Source: Alphaproteobacteria bacterium
GTDB taxonomy: Bacteria; Pseudomonadota; Alphaproteobacteria; CAAGCB01; CAG-977
Assembly: GCA_900768875.1 (NCBI GenBank)
Contig: CAAGEP010000003.1
Span: forward strand, 474,433 to 538,432
Length of the DNA stretch: 64,000 nucleotides
Direction: 5' to 3'
Shown: piece by piece, positions 1 to 23,297 of the stretch
How positions within the stretch are numbered: position 1 is the first letter of the stretch
Layout: every line of letters begins with the position of its first letter
Program-made: the position numbers and the translations under genes
Notes under the pieces: model-generated
What the model was told of the DNA's origin: nothing
Database searches by the model: none
The model's input: the letters and a program-made list of their open reading frames with translations, nothing else

Positions 1-1012
1 CTCCGCCGAAGGAGCCGCCGCGATTTTAATGAACGCAAAAACGGGCGAAATCGTTTCCATGGTATCGTTGCCCGACTTTGATCCGAACAACTTGAAAAGC
101 GCCGCAAAAAGCCAAATATTCAACGCGGCGACTCTGGGCGTTTATGAAGTCGGATCGGTAATGAAAATGTTCAACACCGCCATCGGATTGGAAACCAAAA
201 AAATCAAAGTAACAGACACGATTGACGCGTCGCATCCCGTCGTTTTGGCGAACTACACCATTCAAGACGTGCCTAAACTGCGCCGCGAGCTCAGCGTTCC
301 GGAAATCATGATTCATTCGTCCAATATCGGATCGGCGAAAATCGCTTTGGCGGTCGGGGCGGAAAAGCAGCGTGAATATTTGCGGAAATTCGGATTTTTC
401 ACCGCTCCTCAAATCGAATTGCCCGAAAAGGGACGACCGCTGTACCCGTCGACATGGCGCGACGTCAGCACGGCAACCATCGGTTACGGTTACGGATTGT
501 CCGTATCGCCTCTGCATGTCGTCGCGGCGGCGGCGGCGGTTGTAAACGGCGGCATTTACCACACACCGACTTTGCTGTCCCATCGCTTCAATCAAAAAAA
601 TATCGGCCACCGCGTCATTTCTGACAAGACATCCAAAACAATGCGCGCTATTATGCGCGAAGTCGTCATCAAAGGTTCGGGCCGGCGTGCGAACGTCGCG
701 GGATTCGAGGTCGGCGGCAAAACGGGTTCCGCGCGCAAACTGGTCAACGGCAAATATGTCGAAGGTTCTTTGCGCACGTCGTTTTTGTCGGCTTTCCCCA
801 TGGACGACCCGCAGTATGTTTTAATGGTTATGCTTGATTCGCCAAAAAAAATCAAAGAAACATACTACTTGAACACTGCGGCGTGGAACGCCGTGCCGAC
901 GGCTGAACAGATTATCACGACGGTTGCGCCGCAACTGGGAATCATGCCTCGTCCGTTTGATTCCAAACGCGAAGCGCCGTACGTCAAAGCGGCATTGGAA
1001 TCGCAGGATTGA
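1..1012 (+). CDS. ftsI: Peptidoglycan D,D-transpeptidase FtsI (PBP3), 3' part. The gene starts upstream of the window.
   Basis: In-frame ORF running from the window edge. Transpeptidase motifs are present (SxN as HSSN, and KTGSA). It lies immediately upstream of murE in dcw order. Confidence 0.85.
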   Translation, partial: SAEGAAAILMNAKTGEIVSMVSLPDFDPNNLKSAAKSQIFNAATLGVYEVGSVMKMFNTAIGLETKKIKVTDTIDASHPVVLANYTIQDVPKLRRELSVPEIMIHSSNIGSAKIALAVGAEKQREYLRKFGFFTAPQIELPEKGRPLYPSTWRDVSTATIGYGYGLSVSPLHVVAAAAAVVNGGIYHTPTLLSHRFNQKNIGHRVISDKTSKTMRAIMREVVIKGSGRRANVAGFEVGGKTGSARKLVNGKYVEGSLRTSFLSAFPMDDPQYVLMVMLDSPKKIKETYYLNTAAWNAVPTAEQIITTVAPQLGIMPRPFDSKREAPYVKAALESQD

Positions 1013-1039: not shown

Positions 1040-3877
1040 GTGCAACTGACAGACCTTTTACGCAAAGCCAACATTCCTTATACGGGCGCGGATTGCGTCA
1101 TTGACGGACTCACCGCCGATTCCAGAAAAGTCGGCAAAAACTTTTTGTTCGCCGCCCTGCCCGGAGTCAAAGCCGACGGAACGGCTTTCCTGCAGGATGC
1201 AAAGGAAGCGGGCGCGGTTGCCGCTTTGGTTCCCGAATCGGCATCGGATTTGCCCGACAACGGCTTGATTTACGTCACGGTCGCCGACGCGCGCAAAGCT
1301 TTGGCTGTCATCGCCGCCGCGTTTTACGGCAAACAGCCCGAAACGGCGGTTTGCGTCACGGGCACGAACGGCAAAACGTCCACGGCGAATTTCTGCCGCC
1401 AAATTTGGGACTTTTTGGGCAAAAAAGGCGCAAGCGTCGGCACTTTGGGCGTTTTGACGGCTGAATTCGCGACATACGGCTCGCTGACCACGCCCGATTC
1501 GGTCACGCTTCATTCCGAACTGAAAGATTTGGCGGACAAAGGCTACAATCATCTGGCGTTCGAAGCGTCTTCGCACGGCATCGAACAGCACCGCATCGAC
1601 GGCATCGCCATTGCCGCGGCGGGCTTTACGAACATCACGCGCGACCATTTGGACTATCACAAAACAATGGAAAACTATCTGGCGGCGAAGCTGGGCTTGT
1701 TCGACCGCCCGCTGTCAACGAAAACCGTTGTTTTGAACGCTGACATTCCCGAATATGACCATATCGCCGACTATTGCCGGCAGCGCGGATTGAAAATCCT
1801 TGATTACGGCAAAAAAGCCAAAGCTTTGCGGCTGATTTCCGCCCGCCACGAAACCAACGGGCAACACTTGGAACTGGAAATTCTGGGCAAACCGTATTCG
1901 ATTCACCTGCCTTTGGCGGGAACGTTCCAAGCCATGAACGCTTTGTGCGCTTTGGGATTGGTTCTGGCGACGGGCGAAGACGCCGATTCTTGCGTCAAAG
2001 CGCTGGAAACGCTGAAAGGCGCGCCGGGACGGCTGGAACACGTTGCCGACCGCAAAAACGGTGCGGCGGTGTATGTCGATTACGCGCACACGCCCGACGC
2101 TTTGGAAACCGTTTTGAACGCTTTGCGCCCGCACACAAAGAACCGCCTGTGCGTCGTGTTCGGCTGCGGCGGCGACCGCGACCCCGGAAAGCGTCCTCAA
2201 ATGGGCGCGATTTGCAATGCTTTGGCGGATGTGGTTTACGTCACGGACGACAACCCCCGTTCCGAAGAACCGGCGATTATCCGCGCCGCGATTTTGCCCG
2301 CCTGCCCCAAAGGCATCAACGTCGGCAACCGCGCTTTGGCAATCGAGGAAGCCGTCGAACAGCTGGAAGCGGGCGATATTCTGGTCGTCGCGGGCAAAGG
2401 ACACGAAACGGGACAGCTGATAAAGGGCGTCATGCATCCTTTTGACGACCGCGAGGAAGTCCGCAAAGCCGTCGCTTTGGCGGATACGCCGCTATGGACG
2501 GCGGAAGCCGTGGCGCACGCGACAAACGGGCGCGCGGGCAGCGACTTTGCGATAACGGGCGTTTCGATTGATTCGCGCACCGTCAAGGCGGGCGATTTGT
2601 ACATCGCTTTAATCGGCGAACGGCTGGACGGACACGCTTTCGCGGCGCAAGCTTTGGAAAAAGGCGCGGCGGGCGTTCTGGTGTCGAAACTGCCCGAAAA
2701 CATTCCTTTGGAACAAGTGATTCTGGTGTCCGACACGACCAAAGCGTTAAACGATTTGGCTGTCGCCGCGCGTTCCAGAACATCGGCGAAAATCATCGGC
2801 GTTACAGGCAGTTCCGGCAAAACCAGCACCAAGGAAATGCTGAAAATCGCGTTGTCTTCGGTCGGACGGACTCACACGACCACGGGCAATCTGAACAACA
2901 CCGTCGGCTTGCCTTTGACGTTGGCGCGCATGCCCGAAAAAACGGATTTCGCCGTGATTGAAATGGGCATCAATCACGCGGGTGAAATGGCGGAACTGAC
3001 GGCGCTGACCCGTCCCGACATCGCCGTTATCACCATGATCGGCACGGCGCACCACGAATTTTTCAAAACCCCCGACGACACCGCCCTTGCCAAAGCCGAA
3101 ATTTTCGAAGGCATGACCGATAAGGGAATCGTGTTTTTGAACGCCGACAACCCGCAATTCGAGCTGTTGCAAAAAGAAGCCAAAAAAGCGGGCATCGAGG
3201 ACATCCGCACGTTCGGCACGCGCGCCGAAAACAACGTCGGGCTGATTTACTGCGCCGAAACGGCTGACGAAACGCTTGTCACCGCCCGCGTCGAACCCGC
3301 GCGCTATTCCTACACTCTGCACATGCCGGGGAAACATCAAGTCATGAACAGCCTTGCGGTCGTGGGTGTTTTGGACGCTTTGAACGTCGACATGGCTTCG
3401 GCTTTGCAAAGTTTGGGGCGGCTGTACCCGACGGCGGGACGCGGCAAGCGTTACGTCCTGCCCTGCGCGGACGGCGAATTCACGCTGATAGACGACGCGT
3501 ACAACGCCAACCCCGAATCCATGGCGGCGGGACTGGAAGTCCTCGGCACGCTTGCCCCCGAAAAGGACGGTCGCCGCATTGCCGTTTTGGGCGATATGCT
3601 GGAACTGGGCGACGAATCCGAAAGCCTGCATCTGGGATTGAAAAAAAGCATTGAAGACAATCACATCGACCTTGTGTTCGCGGCGGGCATCGAAACGGGC
3701 AAGCTGTTTGACAATCTGCCCCCCGAAAATCAAGGCGCAAAAGCCTTGACTTCCGCGGAATTGGCGGATACCGTCGCCCAAGCCGTCCGCCCCGGCGACG
3801 TCGTTTTCGTCAAAGGATCGTTCGGCAGCAAAATGACGCTGATTGTCAAAAAATTGAAAAACTTGAACAACGGATAA
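1040..3877 (+). CDS. murE-murF: In-frame fusion of MurE (UDP-MurNAc-tripeptide synthetase, meso-DAP-adding) and MurF (UDP-MurNAc-pentapeptide synthetase). The protein is 945 aa.
   Basis: A single ORF with no stop. The N-terminal ~480 aa are MurE-like (MQLTDLLRKANIPYTGADCVIDGLTADSRKV, ending GKGHETGQLIKGVMHPFDDREEV). These continue directly into a MurF-like N-terminus (LWTAEAVAHATNGRAGSDFAITGVSIDSRTV) that runs to the stop. Confidence 0.85.
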   Translation: MQLTDLLRKANIPYTGADCVIDGLTADSRKVGKNFLFAALPGVKADGTAFLQDAKEAGAVAALVPESASDLPDNGLIYVTVADARKALAVIAAAFYGKQPETAVCVTGTNGKTSTANFCRQIWDFLGKKGASVGTLGVLTAEFATYGSLTTPDSVTLHSELKDLADKGYNHLAFEASSHGIEQHRIDGIAIAAAGFTNITRDHLDYHKTMENYLAAKLGLFDRPLSTKTVVLNADIPEYDHIADYCRQRGLKILDYGKKAKALRLISARHETNGQHLELEILGKPYSIHLPLAGTFQAMNALCALGLVLATGEDADSCVKALETLKGAPGRLEHVADRKNGAAVYVDYAHTPDALETVLNALRPHTKNRLCVVFGCGGDRDPGKRPQMGAICNALADVVYVTDDNPRSEEPAIIRAAILPACPKGINVGNRALAIEEAVEQLEAGDILVVAGKGHETGQLIKGVMHPFDDREEVRKAVALADTPLWTAEAVAHATNGRAGSDFAITGVSIDSRTVKAGDLYIALIGERLDGHAFAAQALEKGAAGVLVSKLPENIPLEQVILVSDTTKALNDLAVAARSRTSAKIIGVTGSSGKTSTKEMLKIALSSVGRTHTTTGNLNNTVGLPLTLARMPEKTDFAVIEMGINHAGEMAELTALTRPDIAVITMIGTAHHEFFKTPDDTALAKAEIFEGMTDKGIVFLNADNPQFELLQKEAKKAGIEDIRTFGTRAENNVGLIYCAETADETLVTARVEPARYSYTLHMPGKHQVMNSLAVVGVLDALNVDMASALQSLGRLYPTAGRGKRYVLPCADGEFTLIDDAYNANPESMAAGLEVLGTLAPEKDGRRIAVLGDMLELGDESESLHLGLKKSIEDNHIDLVFAAGIETGKLFDNLPPENQGAKALTSAELADTVAQAVRPGDVVFVKGSFGSKMTLIVKKLKNLNNG

Positions 3878-3883: not shown

Positions 3884-4969
3884 ATGCTTTACAACCTGCT
3901 TTATCCCCTGTCGTCGCAGTATTCGTTCCTGAACATCTTTAAATACCTGACGTTCAGAACGGGCGGCGCGATTTTCACGGCTTTGATTGTGTGCTTCATC
4001 ATCGGTCCGACGCTGATTCATTGGCTGAAAGACAAACAGCATTGCTGTCAGCCGATTCGCTCTGACGGTCCCGAAACCCACTTGAAAAAGCAGGGAACGC
4101 CGACCATGGGCGGGCTGATGATTCTGGCGTCGCTGACCGTTTCGACCGTGTTGTGGGCGGATTGGAAAAGCGCGTATGTCTGGCTGGCTTTGGGATTGAC
4201 GCTGTGTTTCGGCGTCATCGGTTTCGCGGACGATTATCTGAAAGTGTCGCGTAAAAGCTCGGGCGGCATGCGCGGAAAGTTAAAGCTGGTCTGCGAATTC
4301 GCGGTTGCGGGCTTTGTCGCATGGTACATCACGAAAATCACGGTCACCCCGACGGCGACGACTTTGACGTTTCCGTTCTTTAAAAACTGGGCTGTCAACC
4401 TGTGCTGGGCATATTTGCCGTTTGCGATGTTCGTCATCGTGGGATCCGCCAACGCCGTCAATCTGACCGACGGACTGGACGGATTGGCGACCGTGCCCGT
4501 GATGATTGTTTCCGCCGTGTTCATGATTATCAGCTATGTTGCGGGACATGCGGCTTTTGCGGCGTATCTGCAGCTGCCTTATATCGCAGGATCGGGCGAA
4601 TTGTCCGTCTTTTGCGGCGCGCTTATCGGCGCGGGCATGGGATTTTTGTGGTTTAACGCGCCCCCTGCCAAAATCTTTATGGGCGACACGGGATCGCTGG
4701 CGCTGGGCGGCGCATTGGGCGCGCTGAGCGTCGCCACGAAGCACGAAATCGTTTTGGCGATTGCGGGCGGACTGTTTGTCGCAGAAACCCTGTCAGTCAT
4801 CATCCAAGTTCTGGCATATAAGACGACTCATCACCGTGTTTTCAAAATGGCGCCCTTGCACCATCATTTTGAAAAGCTGGGCTGGTCGGAATTGACGGTC
4901 GTCGTCCGTTTTTGGATTGTCGCCATGATTTTGGGCTTGATAGCGTTGTCAACTTTAAAGATTCGGTAA
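3884..4969 (+). CDS. mraY: Phospho-N-acetylmuramoyl-pentapeptide transferase MraY.
   Basis: 361 aa polytopic membrane protein with the typical MraY N-terminus and motifs. dcw position. Confidence 0.9.
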   Translation: MLYNLLYPLSSQYSFLNIFKYLTFRTGGAIFTALIVCFIIGPTLIHWLKDKQHCCQPIRSDGPETHLKKQGTPTMGGLMILASLTVSTVLWADWKSAYVWLALGLTLCFGVIGFADDYLKVSRKSSGGMRGKLKLVCEFAVAGFVAWYITKITVTPTATTLTFPFFKNWAVNLCWAYLPFAMFVIVGSANAVNLTDGLDGLATVPVMIVSAVFMIISYVAGHAAFAAYLQLPYIAGSGELSVFCGALIGAGMGFLWFNAPPAKIFMGDTGSLALGGALGALSVATKHEIVLAIAGGLFVAETLSVIIQVLAYKTTHHRVFKMAPLHHHFEKLGWSELTVVVRFWIVAMILGLIALSTLKIR

Positions 4970-4972
4970 AGC

Positions 4973-6103
4973 ATGAAAACAGCGATAGCCAGAACGGACA
5001 ACAGCGTTTTGGGGCGGTGGTGGTGGACCATTGACCGCCCTTTGCTGGCTATGCTGTTTGTTTTGTTCGGCATCGGCATCGTGCTGACTTTTTCGGCCAC
5101 ACCCGCGATTGCAAAACATTTGAGGCTGGATATTTACTTCCTTATCCGGCATCAAGTCGTTTTCATGGGCTTGTCGGCACTTTTGATGATAGGCATTTCA
5201 ATCCAGTCTCCGAAAACAATCCGCCTTATCAGTCTGGCGACAATGGCGGCAATGCTGGTTTGTCTGGTTTTGGTGCTTGTCCACGGCACGCAAATCAAAG
5301 GCGCGTCGCGCTGGATTCGCATTTTCGGCGTGTCGCTGCAGCCTTCGGAATTCGCCAAGCCCGCCTTTGCCGTCGTCGCGGCATGGCTGATTTCTTTGGG
5401 CAAAGCCAACCCTCACATCAAAGGCACGCTTTGGACGGCGGGGCTTTACCTGATACTGGTCGGACTGCTGATTAAACAGCCCGATTTCGGCATGGTGCTG
5501 ACGGTCAGCGTGATTTTCGGAATCGAATTGTTTTTAAGCGGTCTGCCGATGTCGTGGATTTCCGCGCTGATACTGATTGGCGGGATAGGTTCTACTTCGG
5601 CTTATTTCCTGCTTCCCCACGTTCAAGCGCGCATTGATCGTTTTTTAAATCCGGAATCGGGGGATACGTTCCAAGTCCGCACTGCCTTTGAAGCGATTAA
5701 AAACGGCGGGCTGTTCGGCACGGGACCGGGGGAAGGAACGGTTAAAAACATCCTGCCCGACGCGCATACGGATTTCGTGCTGGCGGTCGCGGCGGAAGAA
5801 TTCGGGTTAATCGTAACCCTGTTTGTCGTCGGCATTTTTGCGGCGATTGTTTACCGCGGCTTTCTGTTGATTTTGACCAAAGACAAAAATCTGTTCACTT
5901 TGCTGGCGGTGTCGGGATTGCTCGCGCAGTTCGGCATGCAGGCGCTGGTCAATATGGCGTCAACGCTGAGCTTGATTCCCACCAAAGGCATGACTTTGCC
6001 GTTCGTTTCGTACGGCGGGTCTTCTTTGCTGTCGCTGGGGTTTGCGATGGGCATGGTTTTGGGGCTGACGCGCAGCACGAATACGGGAAAGGATACACCA
6101 TGA
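4973..6103 (+). CDS. ftsW: Cell division SEDS-family peptidoglycan glycosyltransferase FtsW.
   Basis: 376 aa SEDS-like membrane protein. It starts 3 nt after the mraY stop, so there is no murD between them. Confidence 0.85.
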   Translation: MKTAIARTDNSVLGRWWWTIDRPLLAMLFVLFGIGIVLTFSATPAIAKHLRLDIYFLIRHQVVFMGLSALLMIGISIQSPKTIRLISLATMAAMLVCLVLVLVHGTQIKGASRWIRIFGVSLQPSEFAKPAFAVVAAWLISLGKANPHIKGTLWTAGLYLILVGLLIKQPDFGMVLTVSVIFGIELFLSGLPMSWISALILIGGIGSTSAYFLLPHVQARIDRFLNPESGDTFQVRTAFEAIKNGGLFGTGPGEGTVKNILPDAHTDFVLAVAAEEFGLIVTLFVVGIFAAIVYRGFLLILTKDKNLFTLLAVSGLLAQFGMQALVNMASTLSLIPTKGMTLPFVSYGGSSLLSLGFAMGMVLGLTRSTNTGKDTP

Positions 6104-7188
6104 CGGATACTTACGTTTTAACGGCGGGCGGCACGGGCGGACACGTTTTCCCCGCGCAAGCTCTGGCGGCGGAGCTGACCGACCGCGGCAACGCCGTTTG
6201 CTTTATCACGGACAGACGCGGCAATTCGTTTTCGGGACAGTTTCCGCAAAGCAAAGAATACCGCGTGTTTGCGGGGGCTTATGCGAATCTGGGCAAAGTC
6301 CGCAAAATCAAAGCGCTGATATTGATGGCGTTCGGTATTTTGCAATGTCTGTTCATCTTGCGCAAAATCAAGCCCAAAGCCGTTGTCGGATTCGGCGGAT
6401 ACGCGTCGTTTCCCGCCGCTTTTGCCGCGGGGATTTTGGGCATTCCCCTTGTCCTGCACGAACAAAACAGCGTTTTGGGCGGTGCGAACCGCGTCCTTGC
6501 CAAACGGGCGAGCCTGATTGCGACTACGTTTCCGAACGTTGCCAAAATCCCCCCGAAAATCAAGACCGCTTACACGGGCGTTCCCGTCCGTCCCGCGATT
6601 CTGGCGTTAAGCGGCGTGCCGTATCAAGCCCCCGCCGACACGTTCGATTTGCTGATTTTCGGCGGATCACAGGGCGCGCACATCTTGAGCGAAGTCATCC
6701 CCGAAGCTTTGAAAGCCCTGCCCGTTTCCGTCAAATACCGGTTGACCGCCTCACAGCAGGCGCGGGCGGCTGACTTGCCCGCTTTGGAACGGGCGTACGC
6801 CGACAGCGGATTGAAAATCGAACTTGCGCCGTTTTTTTCGGACATGGACAAACGGCTGGCGAAAGCAAGCCTTGTCATTTGCCGCGCGGGCGCGTCCACT
6901 ATCGCCGAACTGACCGCCGCGGGACGCCCCGCCGTCATCGTGCCGATTTTGCGTTCCCCCGACGCGCACCAGCTGCATAACGCCGAGTTTATGAGCCAAA
7001 ACAACGCCGCTTTTCTGATAGAAGAACCCGACTTTACCCCAGAAAAGCTGACGGCGTTAATTACAGAATTGTTTAACGACGCAAAAAAGCTTATAACTGT
7101 AGCGAACAATGCAAAACTTTTGGCTAAACCCGACGCGGCGACGCTGTTGGCGGATGCCGTTATCGAAACAGGAAACGCTAAACAATGA
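6100..7188 (+). CDS. murG: UDP-GlcNAc:undecaprenyl-PP-MurNAc-pentapeptide GlcNAc transferase MurG.
   Basis: 362 aa. GTGGHVFPA motif at the N-terminus. Overlaps the ftsW stop by 4 nt. Confidence 0.9.
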   Translation: MTDTYVLTAGGTGGHVFPAQALAAELTDRGNAVCFITDRRGNSFSGQFPQSKEYRVFAGAYANLGKVRKIKALILMAFGILQCLFILRKIKPKAVVGFGGYASFPAAFAAGILGIPLVLHEQNSVLGGANRVLAKRASLIATTFPNVAKIPPKIKTAYTGVPVRPAILALSGVPYQAPADTFDLLIFGGSQGAHILSEVIPEALKALPVSVKYRLTASQQARAADLPALERAYADSGLKIELAPFFSDMDKRLAKASLVICRAGASTIAELTAAGRPAVIVPILRSPDAHQLHNAEFMSQNNAAFLIEEPDFTPEKLTALITELFNDAKKLITVANNAKLLAKPDAATLLADAVIETGNAKQ

Positions 7189-8609
7189 CCAATTTGCCCT
7201 TTTCGTTCGGAACGCTTCACTTTGTAGGCATCGGCGGCAGCGGGATGAGCTGCATCGCCGAACTGATGCACAACCTTGGCTATGACGTGCAGGGATCGGA
7301 CATTTCCGAATCCGCCAACGTCAAGCGTCTGCGCGCCATGGGCATCAACATCTTCATCGGACACAAGCCCGAAAACGTCCAAAACGCGGGCGTTGTCGTC
7401 GTGTCGTCCGCCATTCACGGGGACAACCCCGAAATCGCCGAAGCGCGCAAGCACCGCATCCCCGTCGTGCGCCGTTCGGAAATGCTGGCGGAACTGATGC
7501 GTCTGAAATGGTCGGTCGCGGTCGGCGGAACGCACGGCAAAACGACGACGACATCCATGATTGGCGCGGTTTTGCAGGCGGCGGGGCTTGACCCCACGGT
7601 TGCGAACGGCGGCATTATCAATTCCTACGGCACGAACGCGCATTTGGGCGACGGGAAATGGCTGGTCGCCGAAGCCGACGAATCGGACGGCAGCTTTATC
7701 AAACTGCCCGCCACCGCCGTCGTGGTTACGAATATGGACCCCGAACATCTGAACTATTACGGCACTTACGATAAAATGAAAGACGCGTATCTGAGCTTTG
7801 TTCAAAACATTCCGTTTTACGGATTCGCGTGCCTGTGTGCCGATCACCCCGAAGTCCAAAAGCTTATCGGACATGTGTCCGACCGCCATATCATCACTTA
7901 CGGCTTGACCCCGCAGGCGGAAGTCAGCGGTCAAATCCAAAACGCCGAACCGGGGATGATTACTTTTGACGCGGTCATCGCTCCCGAAGTGTCGCCGACG
8001 GGACAGGAATGGCGAATCGAAGGATTGCAGCTGCCCGTTTACGGTCGCCACAACGTCCAAAACGCTTTGGCGGCGATTGCGGTCGGGCTTCAGCTGGGCG
8101 TGAAAGAAGACGCGATTCGCACCGCTTTGGCAAATTTCAAGGGCGTGCAAAGACGCTTTACCAAACGCGGCGAAGTCAACGGCATTACGATTATCGACGA
8201 TTACGGTCATCATCCGATTGAAATCGCATCGACTTTGAAAGCCGCGCGCGACGTTGCGAAAAAGAAAGTCATCGCCGTCTGGCAGCCGCACCGCTATACG
8301 CGCGTTGCCGATTTGTTTGAACAGTTCTGCACCGCGTTCAACGATGCTGACTGCGTAATCGTCGCCGACATTTACGCGGCGGGCGAAGACGAAATTCCGT
8401 CCGCGAACAAACAGGCTTTGGTCGACGGACTGCGCGCGCACGGTCACCGCAACGTCATCGAGCTGGACAAGCACGAAGACTTGGCGGGCATCATCGCCGA
8501 ACAGGCAAGCAAGGACGACATCGTGATTTGCTTGGGCGCGGGCAGCATTTCCTCGTGGGCAAAGGCTCTGCCCGCCGAATTGGAAGCTTTGTTTGCGGCG
8601 AAAGGATAA
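7185..8609 (+). CDS. murC: UDP-N-acetylmuramate--L-alanine ligase MurC.
   Basis: 474 aa. Mur ligase motifs are present (GIGGSGMS, GTHGKTTTT). Confidence 0.9.
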   Translation: MTNLPFSFGTLHFVGIGGSGMSCIAELMHNLGYDVQGSDISESANVKRLRAMGINIFIGHKPENVQNAGVVVVSSAIHGDNPEIAEARKHRIPVVRRSEMLAELMRLKWSVAVGGTHGKTTTTSMIGAVLQAAGLDPTVANGGIINSYGTNAHLGDGKWLVAEADESDGSFIKLPATAVVVTNMDPEHLNYYGTYDKMKDAYLSFVQNIPFYGFACLCADHPEVQKLIGHVSDRHIITYGLTPQAEVSGQIQNAEPGMITFDAVIAPEVSPTGQEWRIEGLQLPVYGRHNVQNALAAIAVGLQLGVKEDAIRTALANFKGVQRRFTKRGEVNGITIIDDYGHHPIEIASTLKAARDVAKKKVIAVWQPHRYTRVADLFEQFCTAFNDADCVIVADIYAAGEDEIPSANKQALVDGLRAHGHRNVIELDKHEDLAGIIAEQASKDDIVICLGAGSISSWAKALPAELEALFAAKG

Positions 8610-8612: not shown

Positions 8613-9569
8613 ATGTTTTCGTGGTTTCGACATCTGTTTTCAAAATCCCCGTCGTTAAAGGACTTGATGCCTCCCGTCCGCGGACGCGTTACGGAAAACG
8701 CGCCGTTGGCTCAGCTGACGTGGCTGGGGGTCGGCGGTCCCGCGGAAGTGCTGTTTGAACCGGCGGACAAAGACGACTTGGCGTTCTTTTTAAAAGCCAA
8801 AGTCAACACGCCCGTCACGGTCATCGGCGGCGGCTCCAATCTGTTGATTCGCGACGGCGGAATCCCCGGCGTCGTCATCCGTCTGACATCGGGATTTAAA
8901 AAGATTCGCGTCGACGGCGACAAAATCATCTGCGACGCGGCGGTCAAAAACACGGAAATCGCCCAAGCCGCTTTGGAAGCGGGCTTGTCGGGCTTTGAGT
9001 TTATGGTCGGCATCCCCGGCACCATCGGCGGCGCGGTTCGCATGAACGCGGGCGCGCACGGCGGATGCGTCGCGGACAGGCTGGTCGAACTGAACGGGTT
9101 GGAACAGTCGGGCGCGGAAATCCGGTTGACGCGCGACGAAATTCCGTTCGATTACCGCGAAAACGCTTTGCCATCGGGCTGGATTTTCACGGATGTCGTT
9201 TTAAAAGGCGTTCCCGACACGCAAGAATCCATCGCCGCGCGAATGACGGAATTCAAAAAATTGCGTAAACAAAGCCAGCCGACGGGTGTCCGCACGGCGG
9301 GGTCGATGTTTAAAAATCCCGTCGGATTGAAAGCTTGGCAGCTGATTGAAAAGGCGGGATGCCGCGGACTGCGCGTCGGCAACGCGATTGTGTCGGAAAA
9401 GCATGCGAATTTCTTTGTGAATTTGGGCGGCGCAACGGCGCGCGACTTTGAAACGCTGGCGGAAGAAGTGCAAAAACGCGTTTGGGAAACCAGCGAAATC
9501 AATTTGGAATGGGAAGTCCGCCGCGTCGGCGTGAAACCCAAAGCTTTCAGCACGTTCGGAGGAAAATAA
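8613..9569 (+). CDS. murB: UDP-N-acetylenolpyruvoylglucosamine reductase MurB.
   Basis: 318 aa. FAD-binding N-terminal region (LGVGGPAEVLFEP...VIGGGSNLLIRDGG). Lying between murC and ddl matches the alphaproteobacterial dcw order. Confidence 0.85.
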   Translation: MFSWFRHLFSKSPSLKDLMPPVRGRVTENAPLAQLTWLGVGGPAEVLFEPADKDDLAFFLKAKVNTPVTVIGGGSNLLIRDGGIPGVVIRLTSGFKKIRVDGDKIICDAAVKNTEIAQAALEAGLSGFEFMVGIPGTIGGAVRMNAGAHGGCVADRLVELNGLEQSGAEIRLTRDEIPFDYRENALPSGWIFTDVVLKGVPDTQESIAARMTEFKKLRKQSQPTGVRTAGSMFKNPVGLKAWQLIEKAGCRGLRVGNAIVSEKHANFFVNLGGATARDFETLAEEVQKRVWETSEINLEWEVRRVGVKPKAFSTFGGK

Positions 9570-10495
9570 TGGCTAAAAAAGTCGGTGTATTGATGGGCGG
9601 CATGTCGTCGGAACGCGAAGTTTCCCTCAACAGCGGCACCAATGTCGCGGATGCTTTGAAACAGGCGGGCTACGACGTCTTCACGATTGACGTGACGGCG
9701 GACATTCCCGCTTTCATCAAAACAATCGAACGCGAAAAACCCGATGTCCTGTTCAACGCTTTGCACGGCAAATACGGCGAAGACGGCTGTATCCAAGGAT
9801 TGCTGGATTTGATGAAAATCCCCTACACCCATTCGGGACGCTTGGCGTCGGCTTTGGCGATGAACAAAGACGCGGCGCGCAAAATCTATCAGCTGGCGGG
9901 AATCCCCGTCGCCAAAGGCCGCGTCGTCGGCAAAACCGACATTCTGGCGGGCGACGTTCTGCCCCGCCCGTACGTGCTTAAACCCATCAGCGACGGTTCG
10001 TCCGTCGGCGTGTTCATTTTCGACACGGATACGCCGCTTTTCACCGCCGAAACCTATCCCTACCCCGCCGACGCCCCCATTTTGGCGGAAGAATACATCC
10101 CCGGACGCGAAATGACCGTCGCCGTTCTGGACGGCAAGCCTTTGGGTGTTTTGGAAATCGTCCCGAACGAAGACTTTTACGACTATCACGCCAAATACAC
10201 AAACGGCGGAGCTTCGCATATCGTCCCCGCCCCCATGCCCGCCGCCGATTACGAAACGATGATGGCTCTGGCGGCAAAAGCGCACGACGCTTTGGGATGC
10301 CGCGGGGTGTCGCGATCGGATTTCCGCTATGACGACACGGACAAAACAAAGCCCGCAAGAATTGTCATTTTGGAAACGAACACTCAGCCGGGAATGACAA
10401 GCTTGTCGCTTGTCCCCGATATTGCGCGGTATGCGGGCTATACTTACCCCGAATTGGTTTCCTTGATGACGGAGAACGCCCGATGCGGGGATTGA
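9569..10495 (+). CDS. ddl: D-alanine--D-alanine ligase.
   Basis: The ATG at 9569 overlaps the murB stop (taATGg). The N-terminus reads MAKKVGVLMGGMSSEREVSLNSG, followed by an ATP-grasp fold. The ORF track's longer call from 9482 is an in-frame upstream extension. Confidence 0.85.
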   Translation: MAKKVGVLMGGMSSEREVSLNSGTNVADALKQAGYDVFTIDVTADIPAFIKTIEREKPDVLFNALHGKYGEDGCIQGLLDLMKIPYTHSGRLASALAMNKDAARKIYQLAGIPVAKGRVVGKTDILAGDVLPRPYVLKPISDGSSVGVFIFDTDTPLFTAETYPYPADAPILAEEYIPGREMTVAVLDGKPLGVLEIVPNEDFYDYHAKYTNGGASHIVPAPMPAADYETMMALAAKAHDALGCRGVSRSDFRYDDTDKTKPARIVILETNTQPGMTSLSLVPDIARYAGYTYPELVSLMTENARCGD

Positions 10496-11310
10496 ACTTC
10501 CGTTTACCCGCAAAAATCCGCCCGTTTGCGGCGGCTTTTGCCGTCTTGGTTCTGGCAAGCGGCATTGTCGCGTTCACATATTCGGCGTATTATGCGGAAA
10601 AAAAGGAAATGTTGTCCTATCTGGTACAGCAGGCGGCGATGACCGCGGACTTGCGTCTGAACGAAATTTTCGTGCGCGGGCGCGACCGTACACCGCAAAA
10701 AGCGTTGACGGAAATCTTGAAAGCCGAACGCGGCATGCCGCTGACCGCCGTCAACATTGTCAAAGCGCGCGAGGAAATGCAGCGCCTGCCGTGGGTAAAA
10801 ACGGTCGAAATCGAACGCCGTCTGCCGCATTTTTTGCTGATTAACCTGACCGAACGCACGCCGATTGCGGTCTGGCAAAACCAAGGCATTTACAAACCGA
10901 TTGATTCGGACGGGCAAATCATTGAAACCACCGTCAGAAAGCTGAACGGTCTGCCTTTGATTTTGGGAACGGAAGCCCCCGAAAAAACGCCGGAACTGCT
11001 GAGCTTTCTGGCTCAAGAACCCGAATTGATGCGCCGCGTCAAGGCGGGCATCCGAATCGGCAAACGCCGTTGGAACGTCATTTTGGACGATTTGGATGAC
11101 GGCATCACCGTCCGCCTGCCCGAAAGCGACCCCGCGTCAGAATGGGGACGATTGGCGCGGCTGAATAAAACGCAGGGATTGTTGGACAGGGAAATTTCCA
11201 TGATTGACTTGCGTCAGCCGGACAAGCTGATTGTCCATTTGAAAGAATACAAAAAAAGCAAAAAGAAAACCGTTCCGAAACCTGATTTGGCTTTGGAGGA
11301 ATCGCTTTAA
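10483..11310 (+). CDS. ftsQ: Cell division protein FtsQ.
   Basis: 275 aa with a single N-terminal TM helix and a POTRA-like region. dcw position between ddl and ftsA. Confidence 0.75.
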   Translation: MRGLNFRLPAKIRPFAAAFAVLVLASGIVAFTYSAYYAEKKEMLSYLVQQAAMTADLRLNEIFVRGRDRTPQKALTEILKAERGMPLTAVNIVKAREEMQRLPWVKTVEIERRLPHFLLINLTERTPIAVWQNQGIYKPIDSDGQIIETTVRKLNGLPLILGTEAPEKTPELLSFLAQEPELMRRVKAGIRIGKRRWNVILDDLDDGITVRLPESDPASEWGRLARLNKTQGLLDREISMIDLRQPDKLIVHLKEYKKSKKKTVPKPDLALEESL

Positions 11311-11321: not shown

Positions 11322-12575
11322 ATGCCCCGCGTTTTGAACAAAAACGGATTGATGGCCGTATTGGATGTCGGTACGTCCAAAACGTGCTGTATTCTGGCTC
11401 GTCCGCTGGAAGACGAAAAAGTCGATCTTGTCAGCATCGGTTTTCATCAAAGCCGCGGCATTGACAAAGCGGGCATTGCCGATTTGCCCGCTGCGGTTTC
11501 GTCCGTCATGCACGCGGTGGCCGCTGCGGAAAAAGAAACGGGCGAACGCATTGAAACGGTTGTCGCAACGGCATGCGCGAAACAGTTTTCATCGTTTCTT
11601 GTCAACGAATCGGTTGATTTGGACGGCAAAGAAGCGACACAAGCCGACGTAAACCGCTTGATAGCCAAAGCTCAAAACAAAATTCCCGAAAAAAACGATG
11701 AAATTCTGCATTGTATTCCGATTGATTACGGCGTTGACGATCGGCACGGCCTGTCCAATCCGATAGGACTTACAGGGGACAAGCTGTCGTTGATTCTGCA
11801 TACGGTCATGACGCCGCTGTATCCGATGCGCGATATGGACTCCATGCTGGAACAAAGTCATTTGAATTGCGCCAAAAAAGTCGCGTCGCCGTATGCGGCA
11901 GGATTGGCTTGCCTGACGCGGGAAGAAGCGGAACAAGGCTCCGTCGTTATCGATTTGGGGGCGGGATCGACAGGCATCGGTTATTTTTACGGAAAACAAT
12001 TCACTTTTTGCGACAGAATTCCGCTGGGTGCGAATGTCATCTCCAAAAATCTGGCTCAATCGTTCAAAATGGCGTGGGACGATGCGGAACGCATTAAAAC
12101 GCTGAACGGTTCAACCATACCGTCGTCTTCTTATGACCAAGAGGAAATCGAAATTCCCCTTATCGGTGAAAAAGAGCGCACAAATCTGGTTCGCGTTTCA
12201 AAATCGGCCGTCACCGCCGTTATCGAACCCGTCGTTGACGATATATTTCACGCTGTCCGATCAAAACTGGAAGAACAGGGCTTTTACGATTACTGTCTGA
12301 ATGCCGTTTTGGTCGGCGGCGGCGCGCAAATGCACGGAATATGCGAAAAAGCGCGTGCCGTTTTGGGATTAAACGCGCGATTGGGGAAACCTTTGCACAT
12401 TCCCCTGCGGCAAAACGTTGTTCCCGAACATATGTTTCCCATGGCAATGGGGTGTTTCGGACTGTTGCGCTATACATCGCGGTATTTGCTGAACTCGTCG
12501 TTTGCAAAAGACGACATCGGCAAGCCGAAAAATAAATTCGTGCGCTTTTTTCACTGGTTTTTAGATAATTGTTAA
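11322..12575 (+). CDS. ftsA: Cell division protein FtsA.
   Basis: 417 aa with an actin-like ATPase fold (VLDVGTSKT...). Lies between ftsQ and ftsZ. Confidence 0.85.
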   Translation: MPRVLNKNGLMAVLDVGTSKTCCILARPLEDEKVDLVSIGFHQSRGIDKAGIADLPAAVSSVMHAVAAAEKETGERIETVVATACAKQFSSFLVNESVDLDGKEATQADVNRLIAKAQNKIPEKNDEILHCIPIDYGVDDRHGLSNPIGLTGDKLSLILHTVMTPLYPMRDMDSMLEQSHLNCAKKVASPYAAGLACLTREEAEQGSVVIDLGAGSTGIGYFYGKQFTFCDRIPLGANVISKNLAQSFKMAWDDAERIKTLNGSTIPSSSYDQEEIEIPLIGEKERTNLVRVSKSAVTAVIEPVVDDIFHAVRSKLEEQGFYDYCLNAVLVGGGAQMHGICEKARAVLGLNARLGKPLHIPLRQNVVPEHMFPMAMGCFGLLRYTSRYLLNSSFAKDDIGKPKNKFVRFFHWFLDNC

Positions 12576-12675
12576 AGACTTTTCGGATACAATCAGTCCA
12601 GTATTATATCGATACAGCCCTTAAAAGCGCAGAAATCCGCCGATTCGGGGTTGCTTTATTTAAACGGAGAAGTCC

Positions 12676-14277
12676 ATGAGCTTAGACATCAGCGTCCCTG
12701 AACAACAGCCCGTCGTTCTTTTAACCCCGAAAATCACCGTCATCGGCGTCGGCGGAGCGGGCGGAAACGCGATTAACAACATGATCCAGTCCAATTTGGA
12801 AGGTGTCGACTTTGTTGTCGCAAATACGGACGCGCAAGCGCTGAAGGCTTCGCTGGCCGAAACAAAAATCCAGCTGGGCATCCAAACCACCAAAGGACAA
12901 GGCGCGGGCGCGCGTCCCGAAGTCGGCAAAGAATCCGCTGAAGAAGCGGCTTCGGAAATCTCCGGTGTTTTGGACGGCGCAAACATGGTCTTTATTACCG
13001 CCGGCATGGGCGGCGGCACGGGAACGGGCGCGGCTCCCGTCATTGCGAAAATGGCGCGCGAACGCGATATTCTGACCGTCGGCGTCGTCACCAAGCCGTT
13101 TACGTTTGAAGGCCGTCACCGTATGGCGATTGCCGAACGCGGCATTGAAGAAATGGCGCAATACGTCGATACTTTGATTGTCATCCCGAACCAGAATCTG
13201 TTTTTGGTCGCCGATGAAAAAATGACGTTCGCCGAAGCGTTCAAGCGTGCCGACCAAGTCTTGCAGGGCGGCGTCCGCAGCATCACCGATCTGATTATCA
13301 CGCCGGGGATTATCAATCTGGATTTTTCGGACGTGCGCACGGTCATGGCGGAAATGGGACGCGCCATGATGGGCATGGGCACGGCTTCGGGCGAAGGCCG
13401 CGCTTTGGCGGCGGCGGAAGAAGCCATATCCAACCCGCTGTTGGACGACGCATCGATGACCGGAGCGAAAGGCATTTTGATTAACATTGCAGGCGGCAAC
13501 GATTTGACGCTGTACGAAGTTGACGAAGCCGCCAACCGCATCCGCCGTGAAGTCGATCCCGAAGCCAACATCATCTTCGGCGCATCGTACGACGAAACGC
13601 TGGAAGGTTCGATTCGCGTGTCCGTCGTCGCAACGGGCATCACCCGTTCGCAGGAATCAGGCAATCCGTTCCAAAACAATTCCGCCCTGTTCGGGGCGGC
13701 GGCCTCGAAACCCGCCGCAACGCCGGCATTTACGGCTCCGACGTTTACAAAACCTGAACCCGTTGTGCAGCCTCAGCCGCACATTGAACATGCGGAAGCC
13801 CCCGAACCCGAAGCGGAACAAGAGGATATTTCAACCCTTGAAGACGAAATTCCCGCTTTGCCGGCTCAGCATGCCGCCTCGCCGTCCGCGTTGAAAGAAG
13901 CGCCGTCCTTCGTTCCCAAATCGAGCAATTCCGTTTTTCCCGCCATGCCGTCGCCGAACGAGCTGTTCGGCATTTCGGGCGAACAGCGGCATGCGCCGGC
14001 TTTTGAACCGTTGACGGCAAAACCCGCACCGCAGAATCGTTTTCCGTCATTTATGGGCGAACCGCAACAGGCTCCCCGTCCGCAGGAAGACCTGTTTGCG
14101 TCTCCCGCGCCTCAGCCCGTACCGCCCGTCGTTCCCGCCCCCGTCAAACCGGTGGAAAAGGAAAAGTCCCGCCCCTCTTTGTTTCAGTTTGTTACGCGCC
14201 GCAATCAACCCGCAGCCGATTCCGTTGACAAACCGGCCGAAGAGGAAAACGACCTGCCCGCCTTTTTAAGACATTGA
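12676..14277 (+). CDS. ftsZ: Cell division GTPase FtsZ with a long Pro/Gln/Ala-rich C-terminal linker. 533 aa.
   Basis: Tubulin signature GGGTGTG and a conserved C-terminal peptide (DLPAFLRH). The ~150-aa disordered linker is typical of alphaproteobacteria. Confidence 0.9.
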
Positions 14278-14293
14278 CCTTGACTTTTGTCGT

Positions 14294-14328
14294 CAGCCGC
14301 AAGCTTTAAAGCCTGTGGCTGTTTTTTT
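14294..14328 (+). terminator. Putative rho-independent terminator after ftsZ.
   Basis: Imperfect hairpin (agccgca...tgtggct, with one G-U pair) followed by a T7 run. Confidence 0.4.
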
Positions 14329-14458
14329 GCCGTTATCTCTTTGAAAACTTAATGAAAAGTAAATGTAACAAACTGTAACAAAGCTTGATTTGAAATCCGT
14401 CCCGTTCATTGCTAAACCTTAAGATAGAAGTTTAACCCGTACAAAGGGGGACAGGATA

Positions 14459-15409
14459 ATGAACATGGAAAAATATCAACAAAAAACAATCAAGCACGAA
14501 ATTTCTTGCGTCGGTGTCGGTTTGCACACGGGCAATAAAATTTCAATGGTCTTGAAACCTGCCGACATCAATACGGGCATCGTTTTCCACCGCACGGACG
14601 TCGCCGGTCAAAACGCCTATATTCCCGCGCGTCACGAAAACGTCGTCGACACCAGAATGTGTACCTGCATCGGCAACAAAGACGGCGTCAGAATCGCAAC
14701 AATCGAACATTTGATGGCCGCCATTCACGCCTTGGGCATCACCAATATGGAAATCGACATCAATGGCCCCGAAACCCCTGTCATGGACGGCAGCGCGGCT
14801 CCGTTCGTCTTTTTGTTGGAATGTGCCGGAATCAAAGTGCAGAAAGCCTCTTTGAAAGCCGTCAAAGTCCTGAAGCCCGTTTCGTACAAGGACGGTGACA
14901 AGGAAGTCACCCTTTCCCCCGCAGACGAAGGACTGACCATGCACTTTGCCATCGATTTCCCCGCCGCGATTATCGGGCATCAGGAAACGGATTTGAACTT
15001 GACCGCCGCGAACTTTAAAAATATGTTCTGCCGCGCCCGCACGTTCGGCTTTTTGAAAGACATCGAAATGTTGCGCTCCATCGGTTTGGCGCGCGGCGGT
15101 TCGCTGGACAACGCCATTCTGGTCAACGACAACACGATTATGAACAAAGAAGGGTTGCGGTACAAAGACGAATTCGTCCGCCATAAAATGTTGGATGCCG
15201 TCGGTGATTTGTATATGACGGGCATGCCGCTGATTGCAAGCTTTACGGGGTGTCGTTCGGGACACACGGACACGAACGCTTTACTGACCGCTTTGTTGGC
15301 AGACGAAAGCAACTATGAAATCGTCGACTTGCCGTCCTATATGGCGGAATTAGAGGAAAAACAAGCCGCCGTTCAATCCGACGAAGATGCCGCTTTTATG
15401 TGCGCTTGA
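14459..15409 (+). CDS. lpxC: UDP-3-O-acyl-N-acetylglucosamine deacetylase LpxC.
   Basis: 316 aa with an LpxC-like N-terminus (IKHEISCVGVGLHTGNKISMVLKPA). The GGAC motif is preceded by GGGG. Position after ftsZ. Confidence 0.85.
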   Translation: MNMEKYQQKTIKHEISCVGVGLHTGNKISMVLKPADINTGIVFHRTDVAGQNAYIPARHENVVDTRMCTCIGNKDGVRIATIEHLMAAIHALGITNMEIDINGPETPVMDGSAAPFVFLLECAGIKVQKASLKAVKVLKPVSYKDGDKEVTLSPADEGLTMHFAIDFPAAIIGHQETDLNLTAANFKNMFCRARTFGFLKDIEMLRSIGLARGGSLDNAILVNDNTIMNKEGLRYKDEFVRHKMLDAVGDLYMTGMPLIASFTGCRSGHTDTNALLTALLADESNYEIVDLPSYMAELEEKQAAVQSDEDAAFMCA

Positions 15410-15426
15410 CATTTTGATTTGCCCGA

Positions 15427-15462
15427 AAAAAAAACACCTCTGGTTTAAGAGGTGTTTTTTTT
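15427..15462. terminator. Rho-independent terminator (bidirectional) between the convergent lpxC and recA.
   Basis: An A9 run, then hairpin cacctct-ggtttaa-gaggtg, then a T8 run. Confidence 0.75.
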
Positions 15463-15712
15463 AACGGTATCACCGTCAAAGCCGAAGACCGCTTCATCCG
15501 GAATCGCAAGAAGTATTTAACCGGAATACAGGGAAAATTATAATACCGCGCTGATAACCGGTACTAAAACCGGTCTGAAAAAATAGAAAGCGACTCGATT
15601 TCGGACTGCGACAGCGATAAAAAATGCGGCAGCTAAAAATGCCAATCCGTTTGCGCCGGCAACTCCGATTCAAGCACGCAAATCATCATATCGACTGTTC
15701 AATACGGACGCG

Positions 15713-17943: not shown

Positions 17944-18732
17944 TCAAGCGGATTTTGTCCACCCCTTTTGTCCAAAAGAAATGATTGTCGGATTTTTCAA
18001 TCCTTCTTTGCGATACGTCAAAACCCGCCCTGTTTCGGCGTCGAACACTTCGCCGCCCGACGCGCGCAAAACAGCGTGCGCCGCCGCCGTGTCCCATTCT
18101 TTTGTTTTGTGGGAACAAGGATAGACATCGGCTTTTCCTTCGGCAATCAAGCAGAATTTCAGCGAACTGCCGCACGGTTTTTTGTCCGCGATTTTCAGCC
18201 CCGCCAGCATTTTTTCGACAACGGCTTCGTCGCAATGCGTGCGGCTGTTCAAAACCGCGTAACCGCTTTCGGGGACGGCGCGGGTTTTCAAAACCGTTGT
18301 TTGTCCGTTTTGTTCCTTGACCGCTTCATTCGGCGAAAGCGTGTAATACAAAGCCCGCAGCACGGGCGCGTACACCGCCCCGAACACGGGCGCATCGTCC
18401 TTGATTAAAGCGATGTTGACGGTGAATTCACCGTTCTTTTTCACAAAATCCGCCGTGCCGTCAATCGGATCGACCAGCCAGAACAGGCTTTGCGACAAAT
18501 CGGGCAAGCCGCCCGCGGCAAGGTGTTCCTCGCCAATCAAAGGGATGTCGGGGGTCAAAGCGCGCAATCCTTCAAAAATTATGCCTTCGGCTTTCAAGTC
18601 GGCGTCGGTCACGGGTGATTTGTCTGCTTTTTCGTACACGGCAAAATCGCTGCCGTAAATTTCCATAACGGCGTCGCCCGCCTTGACCGCCAGCGCGGCG
18701 ATTTGTTTCACGTCAAAAGGATACGCGTTCAT
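17944..18732 (-). CDS. cysQ: 3'(2'),5'-bisphosphate nucleotidase CysQ / inositol monophosphatase family.
   Basis: The ATG at 18732 is preceded by a GGAGGG Shine-Dalgarno. The N-terminus reads MNAYPFDVKQIAALAVKAGDAVMEIY. IMPase motifs are present (WLVDPIDGT, LIGEE). The longer ORF-track call is an upstream extension. Confidence 0.7.
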   Translation of the reverse strand: MNAYPFDVKQIAALAVKAGDAVMEIYGSDFAVYEKADKSPVTDADLKAEGIIFEGLRALTPDIPLIGEEHLAAGGLPDLSQSLFWLVDPIDGTADFVKKNGEFTVNIALIKDDAPVFGAVYAPVLRALYYTLSPNEAVKEQNGQTTVLKTRAVPESGYAVLNSRTHCDEAVVEKMLAGLKIADKKPCGSSLKFCLIAEGKADVYPCSHKTKEWDTAAAHAVLRASGGEVFDAETGRVLTYRKEGLKNPTIISFGQKGWTKSA

Positions 18733-21161: not shown

Positions 21162-22259
21162 TTACGGCGTATCCTCCCCTTGGGGCAAAGTTTTTCCTTT
21201 CAGCCGATAGACATACTTGATGACTTCGGCCACAGCCGCATAATGCTCCGTCGGAATGGGAGAGTCAATTTCTACCGTTGCGAACAGCGCGCGCGCCAGC
21301 GGCGGATTTTCGACAATCGGCACATCGTTTTCCTTTGCGACCTCTTTGATTTTCTGCGCGATAAAGTCCTGCCCTTTGGCGACGCACACGGGCGCGTCCA
21401 TGCCTTCGTCGGGTTCATAGCGCAAAGCCACCGCAAAGTGGGTCGGGTTTGTTACAACGACGGACGCTTTCGGCACGTTCGCCATCATGCGTTTGCGGAA
21501 ACGCTCCATGCGGATAGAGCGCAAACGCATTTTGATTTGCGGATCGCCCTCGGTTTGCTTGTATTCCTCCTTGACTTCCTGTTTGGTCATGCGCTGACGC
21601 TTCAAGTAGGAAAACTTTTGATAAAAATAGTCGGCGAAAGCGATGACGAACACAATCATCACCATCGTCAGCAAAATCCACAGCAACAGCGAATACAGCA
21701 AATCGATAATCGACGCCACGTCAAACGACGGCGACGCCAGCACGTTGACAATGCGCGGTTTGACAATCAGCCATCCCGCATAGCCCACCGCCGCGATTTT
21801 CAGCAGCCCTTTTATCATATCGACGATTTTGGCTTTGGTGATGAATTCCTTGGCGTTGGCGAACAGGTTAATTCTGTCCCACTTCAGCGTCATGCGTTTG
21901 GGCGCGTACAGAAAACCGATTTGAACCAAAGCCGACGCTATCGCCAAAATCAAAAACAGCCCCAAAGGCGCGGCAACTGCAATCAGCATATCCAGCGATG
22001 TATCGCGCAGCAAATCGCGCAGTCCCAGCGGGTCCGTCGGCAGCTGTTCGGGGCGTTCGATGTACTTGACGGACAGCCGCGCCGTGTACTTCATCAAAAA
22101 CGGGCAAAGCCCCCACAGCATCATCAAAGCGGCAAACAGCATAAACCAGCTTTTGACTTCCTGAGACATGGGGACATGCCCTTCTTCGCGGGCGCGCTCC
22201 AGTTTTCGCTCGGAAGCCTCTTCTGTTTTCGAGGACTCGTCCTGATCGTCTTCAGCCAT
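21162..22259 (-). CDS. flhB: Flagellar export apparatus protein FlhB.
   Basis: 365 aa. The NPTH autocleavage motif (VVVTNPTHFAVAL) is present. The topology is FlhB-like. Confidence 0.85.
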   Translation of the reverse strand: MAEDDQDESSKTEEASERKLERAREEGHVPMSQEVKSWFMLFAALMMLWGLCPFLMKYTARLSVKYIERPEQLPTDPLGLRDLLRDTSLDMLIAVAAPLGLFLILAIASALVQIGFLYAPKRMTLKWDRINLFANAKEFITKAKIVDMIKGLLKIAAVGYAGWLIVKPRIVNVLASPSFDVASIIDLLYSLLLWILLTMVMIVFVIAFADYFYQKFSYLKRQRMTKQEVKEEYKQTEGDPQIKMRLRSIRMERFRKRMMANVPKASVVVTNPTHFAVALRYEPDEGMDAPVCVAKGQDFIAQKIKEVAKENDVPIVENPPLARALFATVEIDSPIPTEHYAAVAEVIKYVYRLKGKTLPQGEDTP

Positions 22260-22265
22260 TGCCCC

Positions 22266-23024: not shown

Positions 23025-23027
23025 CGC

Positions 23028-23297
23028 TTATGTTCCCAAAGCGACAATGCGGTCGAACAACCCCGCGGAAAACGTCCTTAACTGGTCAATCATAAACGGA
23101 AGCAGCAAAATCAGCGAAATGAACACCACCAGAATTTTCGGCACGAACACCAGCGTCATTTCTTGGATTTGAGTCAACGTCTGCACCAAACTGATAAGCA
23201 GACCGACAACCATCGCAATCATCAGCAACGGTCCCACGACCAGCAAAAGCGTGTAAATCGCGTCTTTACCGACCTCCAGAACCATAACGTCGTTCAT
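23028..23297 (-). CDS. fliQ: Flagellar export apparatus protein FliQ.
   Basis: 89 aa from the ATG at 23297 (MNDVMVLEVGKDAIYTLLLVVGPLL...), matching FliQ size and hydrophobicity. The ORF track's upstream extension is rejected. Confidence 0.75.
   Translation of the reverse strand: MNDVMVLEVGKDAIYTLLLVVGPLLMIAMVVGLLISLVQTLTQIQEMTLVFVPKILVVFISLILLLPFMIDQLRTFSAGLFDRIVALGT

Follow-up and report, generated by a model that had tools for sequence, protein, structure and literature searches.

Absence of murD between mraY and ftsW, together with a murE-murF fusion, in the dcw cluster of a gut-associated alphaproteobacterial clade

Introduction

Few bacterial gene orders are as well conserved as that of the division and cell wall (dcw) cluster, which has been linked to the assembly of a complex of Mur ligases. 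Two described departures from it bear on the present work. Fusion of murE to murF yields the most common Mur chimera, which is found mostly in Proteobacteria (PMC10214165). In Xanthomonas oryzae, the MurD homologue XOO_1320 adds L-glutamate, and the associated murL gene encodes an epimerase (PMC8788868, PMC5808125). Enzymes of this second type, known as MurD2, carry the diagnostic residues Glu197 and Arg358, as opposed to Asp182 and Lys348 in MurD from Escherichia coli (PMC8788868).

Here, we describe the dcw cluster on a stretch of 64,000 nucleotides from an alphaproteobacterium (contig CAAGEP010000003.1, positions 474,433 to 538,432), hereafter referred to as the window. In this cluster, murE and murF form a single open reading frame (ORF), written murE~murF below, and mraY is followed directly by ftsW with no murD between them. 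A preliminary description of this DNA had pointed to the missing murD and had viewed it, together with the ligase fusion, as the mark of a remodelled cell-wall locus. We examined the junction, its reproducibility among assemblies and its distribution among relatives, and we searched for the missing gene.

Results

mraY is followed directly by ftsW in an otherwise canonical cluster

The mraY stop codon occupies positions 4967-4969 and ftsW starts at position 4973, as the preliminary description had stated, leaving a gap of 3 nt and no murD between the two genes. The mraY gene ends in ...AAGATTCGG, followed by the TAA stop, the spacer AGC and the ftsW ATG at 4973 (...CGG TAA AGC ATG AAA...). A spacer of this length has no room for a murD remnant, and neither a plus-strand promoter-like site nor an intergenic terminator was detected at the mraY/ftsW junction. 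The remainder of the cluster follows the order typical of Alphaproteobacteria, an earlier claim that Pfam and NCBIfam assignments and the gene coordinates now bear out: ftsI, murE~murF, mraY, ftsW, murG, murC, murB, ddl, ftsQ, ftsA, ftsZ and lpxC, all on the plus strand. The mraZ-rsmH-ftsL genes are present upstream of ftsI on the contig. Thus, the genes from ftsI to ftsZ are collinear and on the same strand as in canonical dcw clusters, and the cluster departs from the canonical arrangement in having the 3-nt gap where murD would lie between mraY and ftsW. The genes of the cluster are listed here with the evidence for each.

29..1012, plus strand: 3' part of ftsI (PBP3 transpeptidase; Pfam Transpeptidase, 207 bits); the start lies upstream of the window and the full gene on the contig encodes 578 residues (aa)
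1040..3877, plus strand: murE~murF, a single 945-aa ORF without a linker, in which the Mur ligase N, M and C domains occur as two complete sets
3884..4969, plus strand: mraY, 361 aa, with TAA at 4967-4969 (TIGR00445, 408 bits; cutoff 192)
4970..4972, plus strand: mraY/ftsW spacer AGC, 3 nt as read from the sequence; the slot of murD in canonical clusters
4973..6103, plus strand: ftsW, 376 aa, a SEDS protein without a ligase domain (Pfam FTSW_RODA_SPOVE, residues 25-369)
6100..7188, plus strand: murG (Pfam Glyco_transf_28 and Glyco_tran_28_C)
7185..8609, plus strand: murC, the sole Mur ligase gene of the window besides murE~murF (TIGR01082, 527 bits; cutoff 335)
8613..9569, plus strand: murB (Pfam FAD_binding_4 and MurB_C), with an alternative start at 8667
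9569..10495, plus strand: ddl, called as 308 aa (Pfam Dala_Dala_lig_N and Dala_Dala_lig_C)
10483..11310, plus strand: ftsQ (Pfam match and contig annotation)
11322..12575, plus strand: ftsA (Pfam match and contig annotation)
12676..14277, plus strand: ftsZ (Pfam match and contig annotation)
14459..15409, plus strand: lpxC, the last gene of the cluster (Pfam match and contig annotation)

A gene can seem to be missing when it has been fused to its neighbor. The preliminary description had judged the 376-aa ORF to be FtsW and nothing else, and domain analysis agrees. The best NCBIfam model for the product is ftsW (TIGR02614) at 310 bits, narrowly below the equivalog cutoff of 337.5 bits, and the rodA model scores 227 bits. 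The Pfam SEDS family match (236 bits) extends over residues 25-369 of 376 and the protein contains no ligase domain, which rules out a murD-ftsW fusion. Gene callers applied to identical DNA in two assemblies disagreed on the start of ftsW, giving a product of either 376 aa (from 4973) or 364 aa (from 5009), and likewise on that of murB, which was called as 318 aa (from 8613) or 300 aa (from 8667). The ftsW N-terminus MKTAIARTDNS... is conserved in six close relatives (loci L088-L093, described below), where it begins 3-10 nt past the mraY stop codon. In the more distant locus L002, ftsW starts 17 nt past the mraY stop and its first residues are divergent, then give way to the shared RTDQS... 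core. This clade-wide conservation backs the ATG at 4973 as the true ftsW start.

The junction is reproduced in independent assemblies

Collapse of the region during assembly had been raised as an explanation that would undo the observation. Misassembly is excluded, because the same junction is found in independent contigs from a heavily sampled organism. Five contigs, four of them 0.2-1 Mb in length, encode an identical 945-aa MurE~MurF. The other contig that we read, the L082 scaffold (612,895 bp), was assembled from a different sample (ERZ28571175) and has the same mraY-ftsW adjacency. Clustered at 90% identity, proteins of the window species group with others from NCBI, ENA and Logan in sets of 34-276 members. 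The junction thus recurs in assemblies made independently, with different samples and different assemblers. It is also found across genera that lie 20-40% apart in protein sequence and range in guanine-plus-cytosine (GC) content from 31% to 60%.

The murD-less layout defines a gut-associated clade

To place the layout among relatives, we scanned one genome per species with the MraY of the window and recovered 80 loci, 77 of which were informative; murD was located in each by the positions of the aligned domains. The gene lies directly after mraY in 74/77 of these alphaproteobacterial species genomes. Only two of the informative loci, L002 and L015, proceed straight from mraY into ftsW, and a third (L007) consists of an isolated mraY. 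L002 comes from Horse_feces366 (JAKSVT01), an alphaproteobacterial metagenome-assembled genome (MAG) from horse faeces with 31% GC; its MraY is 75% identical to that of the window, and its murE and murF are fused. L015, from MAG CA_2019_TPIn_49 (JBFXJJ01; 37.5% GC), has a fused murE~murF as well and a gap of 20 nt between mraY and ftsW. Searching metagenomes with the fused protein added six closer relatives, of which L088-L090 are 92-97% identical to the window; L091-L093 are about 65% identical in MurE~MurF and 76-80% identical in MraY, with a GC content of 50-60%. All six have both the murE~murF fusion and the direct mraY-ftsW junction, and no MurD-like ORF was found on either strand of these loci, which cover 9.1 kb for L089 and about 22.8 kb for each of the other five. 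Across the clade, mraY and ftsW are separated by 3-17 nt (3 nt in the window), and the neighboring dcw genes are 58-83% identical between genera.

A neighbor-joining tree was built from 1487 concatenated columns of FtsI, MurE, MraY and FtsW, with 100 bootstraps. The window groups with L088, L090-L093 and L002 in 100/100 bootstraps, and L015 is sister to this clade in 71/100. The next branch is L097, which is Holosporaceae-like according to the MurD-seeded search described below; it has separate murE and murF genes and has kept murD. All four of the outgroups inspected (L094, L097, L172 and L174) show the canonical mraY-murD-ftsW arrangement, as do the unrelated L086 and L168. Judged by this tree, the fused, murD-less layout is a synapomorphy of a deep lineage associated with the gut, and it was possibly inherited from an ancestor shared with L015. 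The synteny comparison proposed in the preliminary description thus gives one layout throughout the clade against a canonical order in nearly all other species genomes, and the notion of a remodelled cell-wall locus is a fair one, since fusion and loss are inherited together in the clade. The MraY of L093 is identical, by exact look-up, to CCZ21881.1 of "Acetobacter sp. CAG:977", and the clade therefore takes in a named and annotated human-gut genome. The clade may correspond to the GTDB group RF32/CAG-239.

Fusion and murD loss are not obligatorily linked, because each is found alone. L099, L107 and L111 have a fused murE~murF and keep murD. In the unrelated L157, L129 and L132, whose MraY proteins are 34-38% identical to that of the window, mraY runs directly into ftsW without a fusion; L129 and L132 also have no murF in the cluster.

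Several further features of these loci were recorded. The same layout occurs in one clade at 31% GC (L002) and at 60% GC (L092), so that base composition varies unusually widely within it. Some relatives show further erosion of the cluster: in L002 (12275-19913) it ends after ftsW, followed by genes for an ABC substrate-binding protein, an M3 peptidase and guanylate kinase, and in L015 (14782-16577) ddl is absent between murB and ftsQ. L168, from a marine TARA alphaproteobacterium, has three small unannotated ORFs between ftsW and murG (11392-15593) in an otherwise canonical cluster.

murE and murF are joined without a linker

The 945-aa ORF encodes a complete MurE followed by a complete MurF, each with its N, M and C domains, as expected of a MurE-MurF chimera. 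The MurE model NF001124 matches residues 14-480 at 727 bits (cutoff 476) and the MurF model NF010693 matches residues 482-940 at 554 bits (cutoff 544). With the MurE match stopping at residue 480 and the MurF match beginning at 482, there is no linker between the two enzymes. Every locus of the clade, as well as L015, has the fusion. Against the curated bifunctional family NF008896, it scores 888 bits, below the cutoff of 1023, and so falls outside that family. This score and the alphaproteobacterial affinities of the protein suggest an independent event, and the fusion probably has a separate origin from the Bordetella type.

No murD is found in the region surrounding the cluster

The window lies within ENA metagenome contig ERZ27229624 k119_50723 (119,316 bp), from which we took the flanking DNA. 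The region searched comprised the 64-kb window with about 9 kb upstream and about 7 kb downstream, or roughly 80 kb in total. We built a MurD profile from 21 alphaproteobacterial MurD proteins and ran it with filters off against all six-frame ORFs of at least 30 aa from the window and flanks. Genuine alphaproteobacterial MurD proteins score about 680-720 bits with this profile. Here, MurE~MurF reached 100 bits and MurC 87 bits, and beyond these two paralogues no ORF of the window or flanks was matched better than E = 0.39. A tblastn search across the same DNA returned the same paralogous regions only. With the curated MurD model TIGR01087 (cutoff 212), the best scores in the window were 163 bits for MurE~MurF and 106 bits for MurC, and nothing exceeded the cutoff. 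Phmmer searches with MurC and MurE~MurF as queries also found only those two window ORFs to resemble Mur ligases. The upstream flank carries valS, a TolC-like gene, an AmpD-like amidase gene and mraZ-rsmH-ftsL, and the downstream flank carries mutL, lepA and an RND efflux pair; neither contains a further Mur ligase gene or a gene for glutamate racemase (murI).

We also looked for a MurD of the clade in sequence databases, where the results described are the best 120 of 8000 scored candidates. The MurD profile was run on a set of 5.8 billion proteins, and these best-scoring matches were all from typical environmental alphaproteobacteria, with none recognised as belonging to the clade. A search seeded with the MurD of L097 reached Holosporaceae-like lineages among its best matches and again none was recognised as the clade's. 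By way of comparison, the MraY of the clade is only about 60% identical to that of any outgroup. Four individual candidates were rejected as MurD of the clade: P0160, which is labelled "Azospirillum sp." and comes from a soil MAG with a canonical cluster, and P0256 (marine TARA), P0209 and P0208, all of which lie in canonical clusters. The organisms behind these four are of soil, marine or Holosporales-like type.

For the MurD2/MurL type, the PDB held no sequence that could serve as a seed, viral contigs gave two irrelevant matches, and the plasmid collection held no member of the Xanthomonadales, Devosia or the clade. A literature search turned up nothing on the cell wall of the clade lineage. 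As a separate matter, the plasmid collection (PLSDB) includes whole chromosomes under a plasmid label, e.g. of E. coli (4.9 Mb), Sinorhizobium (3.5-3.7 Mb) and Nonomuraea (11.85 Mb), as well as chromosome fragments from gut metagenomes, which affects any claim that a housekeeping gene is "plasmid-borne".

Other genes of the window

Outside the dcw cluster, the minus strand carries three sets of genes that we record here. Flagellar rod and export genes (flgB/C-like, fliE, fliQ, fliR and flhB) occupy 21162-24521 and adjoin the gene for a PAS-HisKA-receiver hybrid kinase (18729-21161). Based on this gene content, the gut alphaproteobacterium appears to be flagellated. The uncharacterised DUF6782 family is represented by tandem genes for three paralogues, of 693, 342 and 345 aa, at 28035-32340. 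The genes for a 760-aa pentapeptide-repeat protein and a Sel1-repeat protein lie side by side at 34550-37689, and both families are often tied to host interaction.

Discussion

The dcw cluster of this clade has lost murD from its usual slot through a clean junction, which is reproducible and has a well-defined distribution, and the neighboring genes are intact; each of these points was observed directly. MurD catalyses an essential step between those of MurC and MurE, and the question is how this step is supplied. A gene for the enzyme almost certainly exists at another place in the genome. We consider that this is most likely an ordinary, D-glutamate-adding murD, and we put the probability of this at about 0.6. 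Both the existence of such a gene and its kind are inferred, the former from pathway logic. MurE, MurF, MurC and MraY all pass their curated cutoffs, and the 58-83% identity of the neighboring genes across genera is consistent with a working pathway in which the product of MurD is still required. In the proposed scenario, a second copy of murD would have arisen elsewhere in the genome, through duplication and transposition or through acquisition of a foreign gene. The operon copy would then have been precisely excised in the common ancestor of the gut-associated clade, so that mraY and ftsW lie within 3-17 nt of each other and would be co-transcribed, with translational coupling probable. Fusion of murE and murF took place in this lineage as well, and the MurD reaction would be supplied from outside the cluster.

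Two results count against a relocated ordinary murD. The gene was found neither in the region of roughly 80 kb nor among the best 120 of 8000 database candidates. Moreover, no large gut-type MurD cluster appeared near the top of the L097-seeded search, within the same best 120 of 8000, though a close vertical relative of the Holosporaceae-like MurD might have been expected to surface there. The latter result would allow for an enzyme that is divergent or non-canonical.

One such enzyme would be MurD2. The clade could use a MurD2/MurL pair, encoded as its own unit outside the dcw cluster, and dispense with glutamate racemase. This pathway is established in X. oryzae, and pairs have been reported in some Alphaproteobacteria, namely Devosia, Pelagibacterium and Parvularcula (PMC8788868). 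The sole MurD homologue of X. oryzae, XOO_1320, adjoins murL (XOO_1319) and no dcw gene (PMC5808125), which provides a documented reason for a murD to lie outside the canonical slot. The clade data are compatible with this route in two respects: no canonical-looking MurD of the clade was seen among the best 120 of 8000 in either MurD search, and no murI, nor any murL, was found among the roughly 80 kb examined. The second point is weak evidence, because murI is often far from the dcw cluster and its absence here says little. In addition, the known distribution of MurD2/MurL is narrow and includes no gut lineage and none related to Holosporales, and the PDB holds no MurD2. On balance, we regard a MurD2/MurL pair as an unlikely solution, but as the main rival to an ordinary murD elsewhere.

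It is far harder to argue that this family-level gut clade has no MurD-family enzyme at all. The reaction would then fall to a non-orthologous or repurposed ligase, for example a MurC paralogue or the MurE~MurF fusion itself, and might be connected with the inheritance of that fusion; alternatively, salvage of peptidoglycan peptides would bypass de novo synthesis. In favor of such a scheme, the loss of murD and an unusual ligase fusion are passed on together, and no murD was found in the roughly 80 kb or recognised in the database searches. These are negative results, and the best-120 sets could not reach the lineage, so that their silence is uninformative. Mur ligases are highly substrate-specific, which speaks against repurposing, and the MurE half, the MurF half and MurC are ordinary equivalogs and remain well under the MurD cutoff (163 and 106 versus 212 bits). 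A life based on salvage alone would not keep murC, murB and ddl at the conservation seen. We therefore consider the absence of any MurD-family enzyme very improbable.

An artefact, whether a misassembly that deleted murD or a hidden murD-ftsW fusion, was worth checking because MurD-FtsW chimeras exist in Proteobacteria (PMC10214165), but we found no evidence for one and give it practically no credence, as the junction is repeated in independent assemblies and across genera and the SEDS model matches FtsW along its full length.

If the favored explanation of an ordinary murD elsewhere is correct, then the layout serves only as a handy synteny marker for the clade. If the clade instead proves to use MurD2/MurL, the alternative pathway would be extended to gut commensals, with a bearing on the narrow-spectrum inhibitors that are being sought against it. 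Either way, the clade is a natural test case for how far dcw co-linearity is needed: one ligase gene has been cleanly removed and two others fused, and this state has been kept across genera of 31-60% GC. The locus also flags the D-glutamate step as one to check in a human-gut lineage that is uncultured but has been sampled widely. We have not found the combination of fusion and murD removal described as a stable, clade-defining layout for a gut alphaproteobacterial lineage. The finding is nonetheless a modest one, noteworthy rather than startling, because relocation of genes out of the dcw cluster is known to happen and a mundane resolution is the most probable.

Comparison with known systems

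The canonical proteobacterial dcw cluster, seen in 74/77 of the genomes surveyed, has the genes of the locus described here in the same order and on the same strand between mraZ and ftsZ, and lpxC comes next. The window differs from it in two respects, namely the absence of murD between mraY and ftsW and the presence of murE and murF as one ORF. For the second of these, the nearest described counterpart is the MurE-MurF protein of Bordetella pertussis, which is likewise a head-to-tail fusion without a linker and occupies the same position in the operon; Bordetella keeps murD after mraY, whereas the window does not. We presume that the Xanthomonas dcw cluster itself runs from mraY into ftsW without murD, and an explicit statement on its layout was not found in the literature. 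The X. oryzae MurD2/MurL system would resemble that of the window in having a complete peptidoglycan pathway with murD away from the mraY-ftsW junction, and the resemblance extends only to murD being out of place. The MurD-FtsW chimeras (PMC10214165) illustrate another way in which murD may seem to have gone, but they do not apply here, where FtsW is a protein of 376 aa with no ligase domain.

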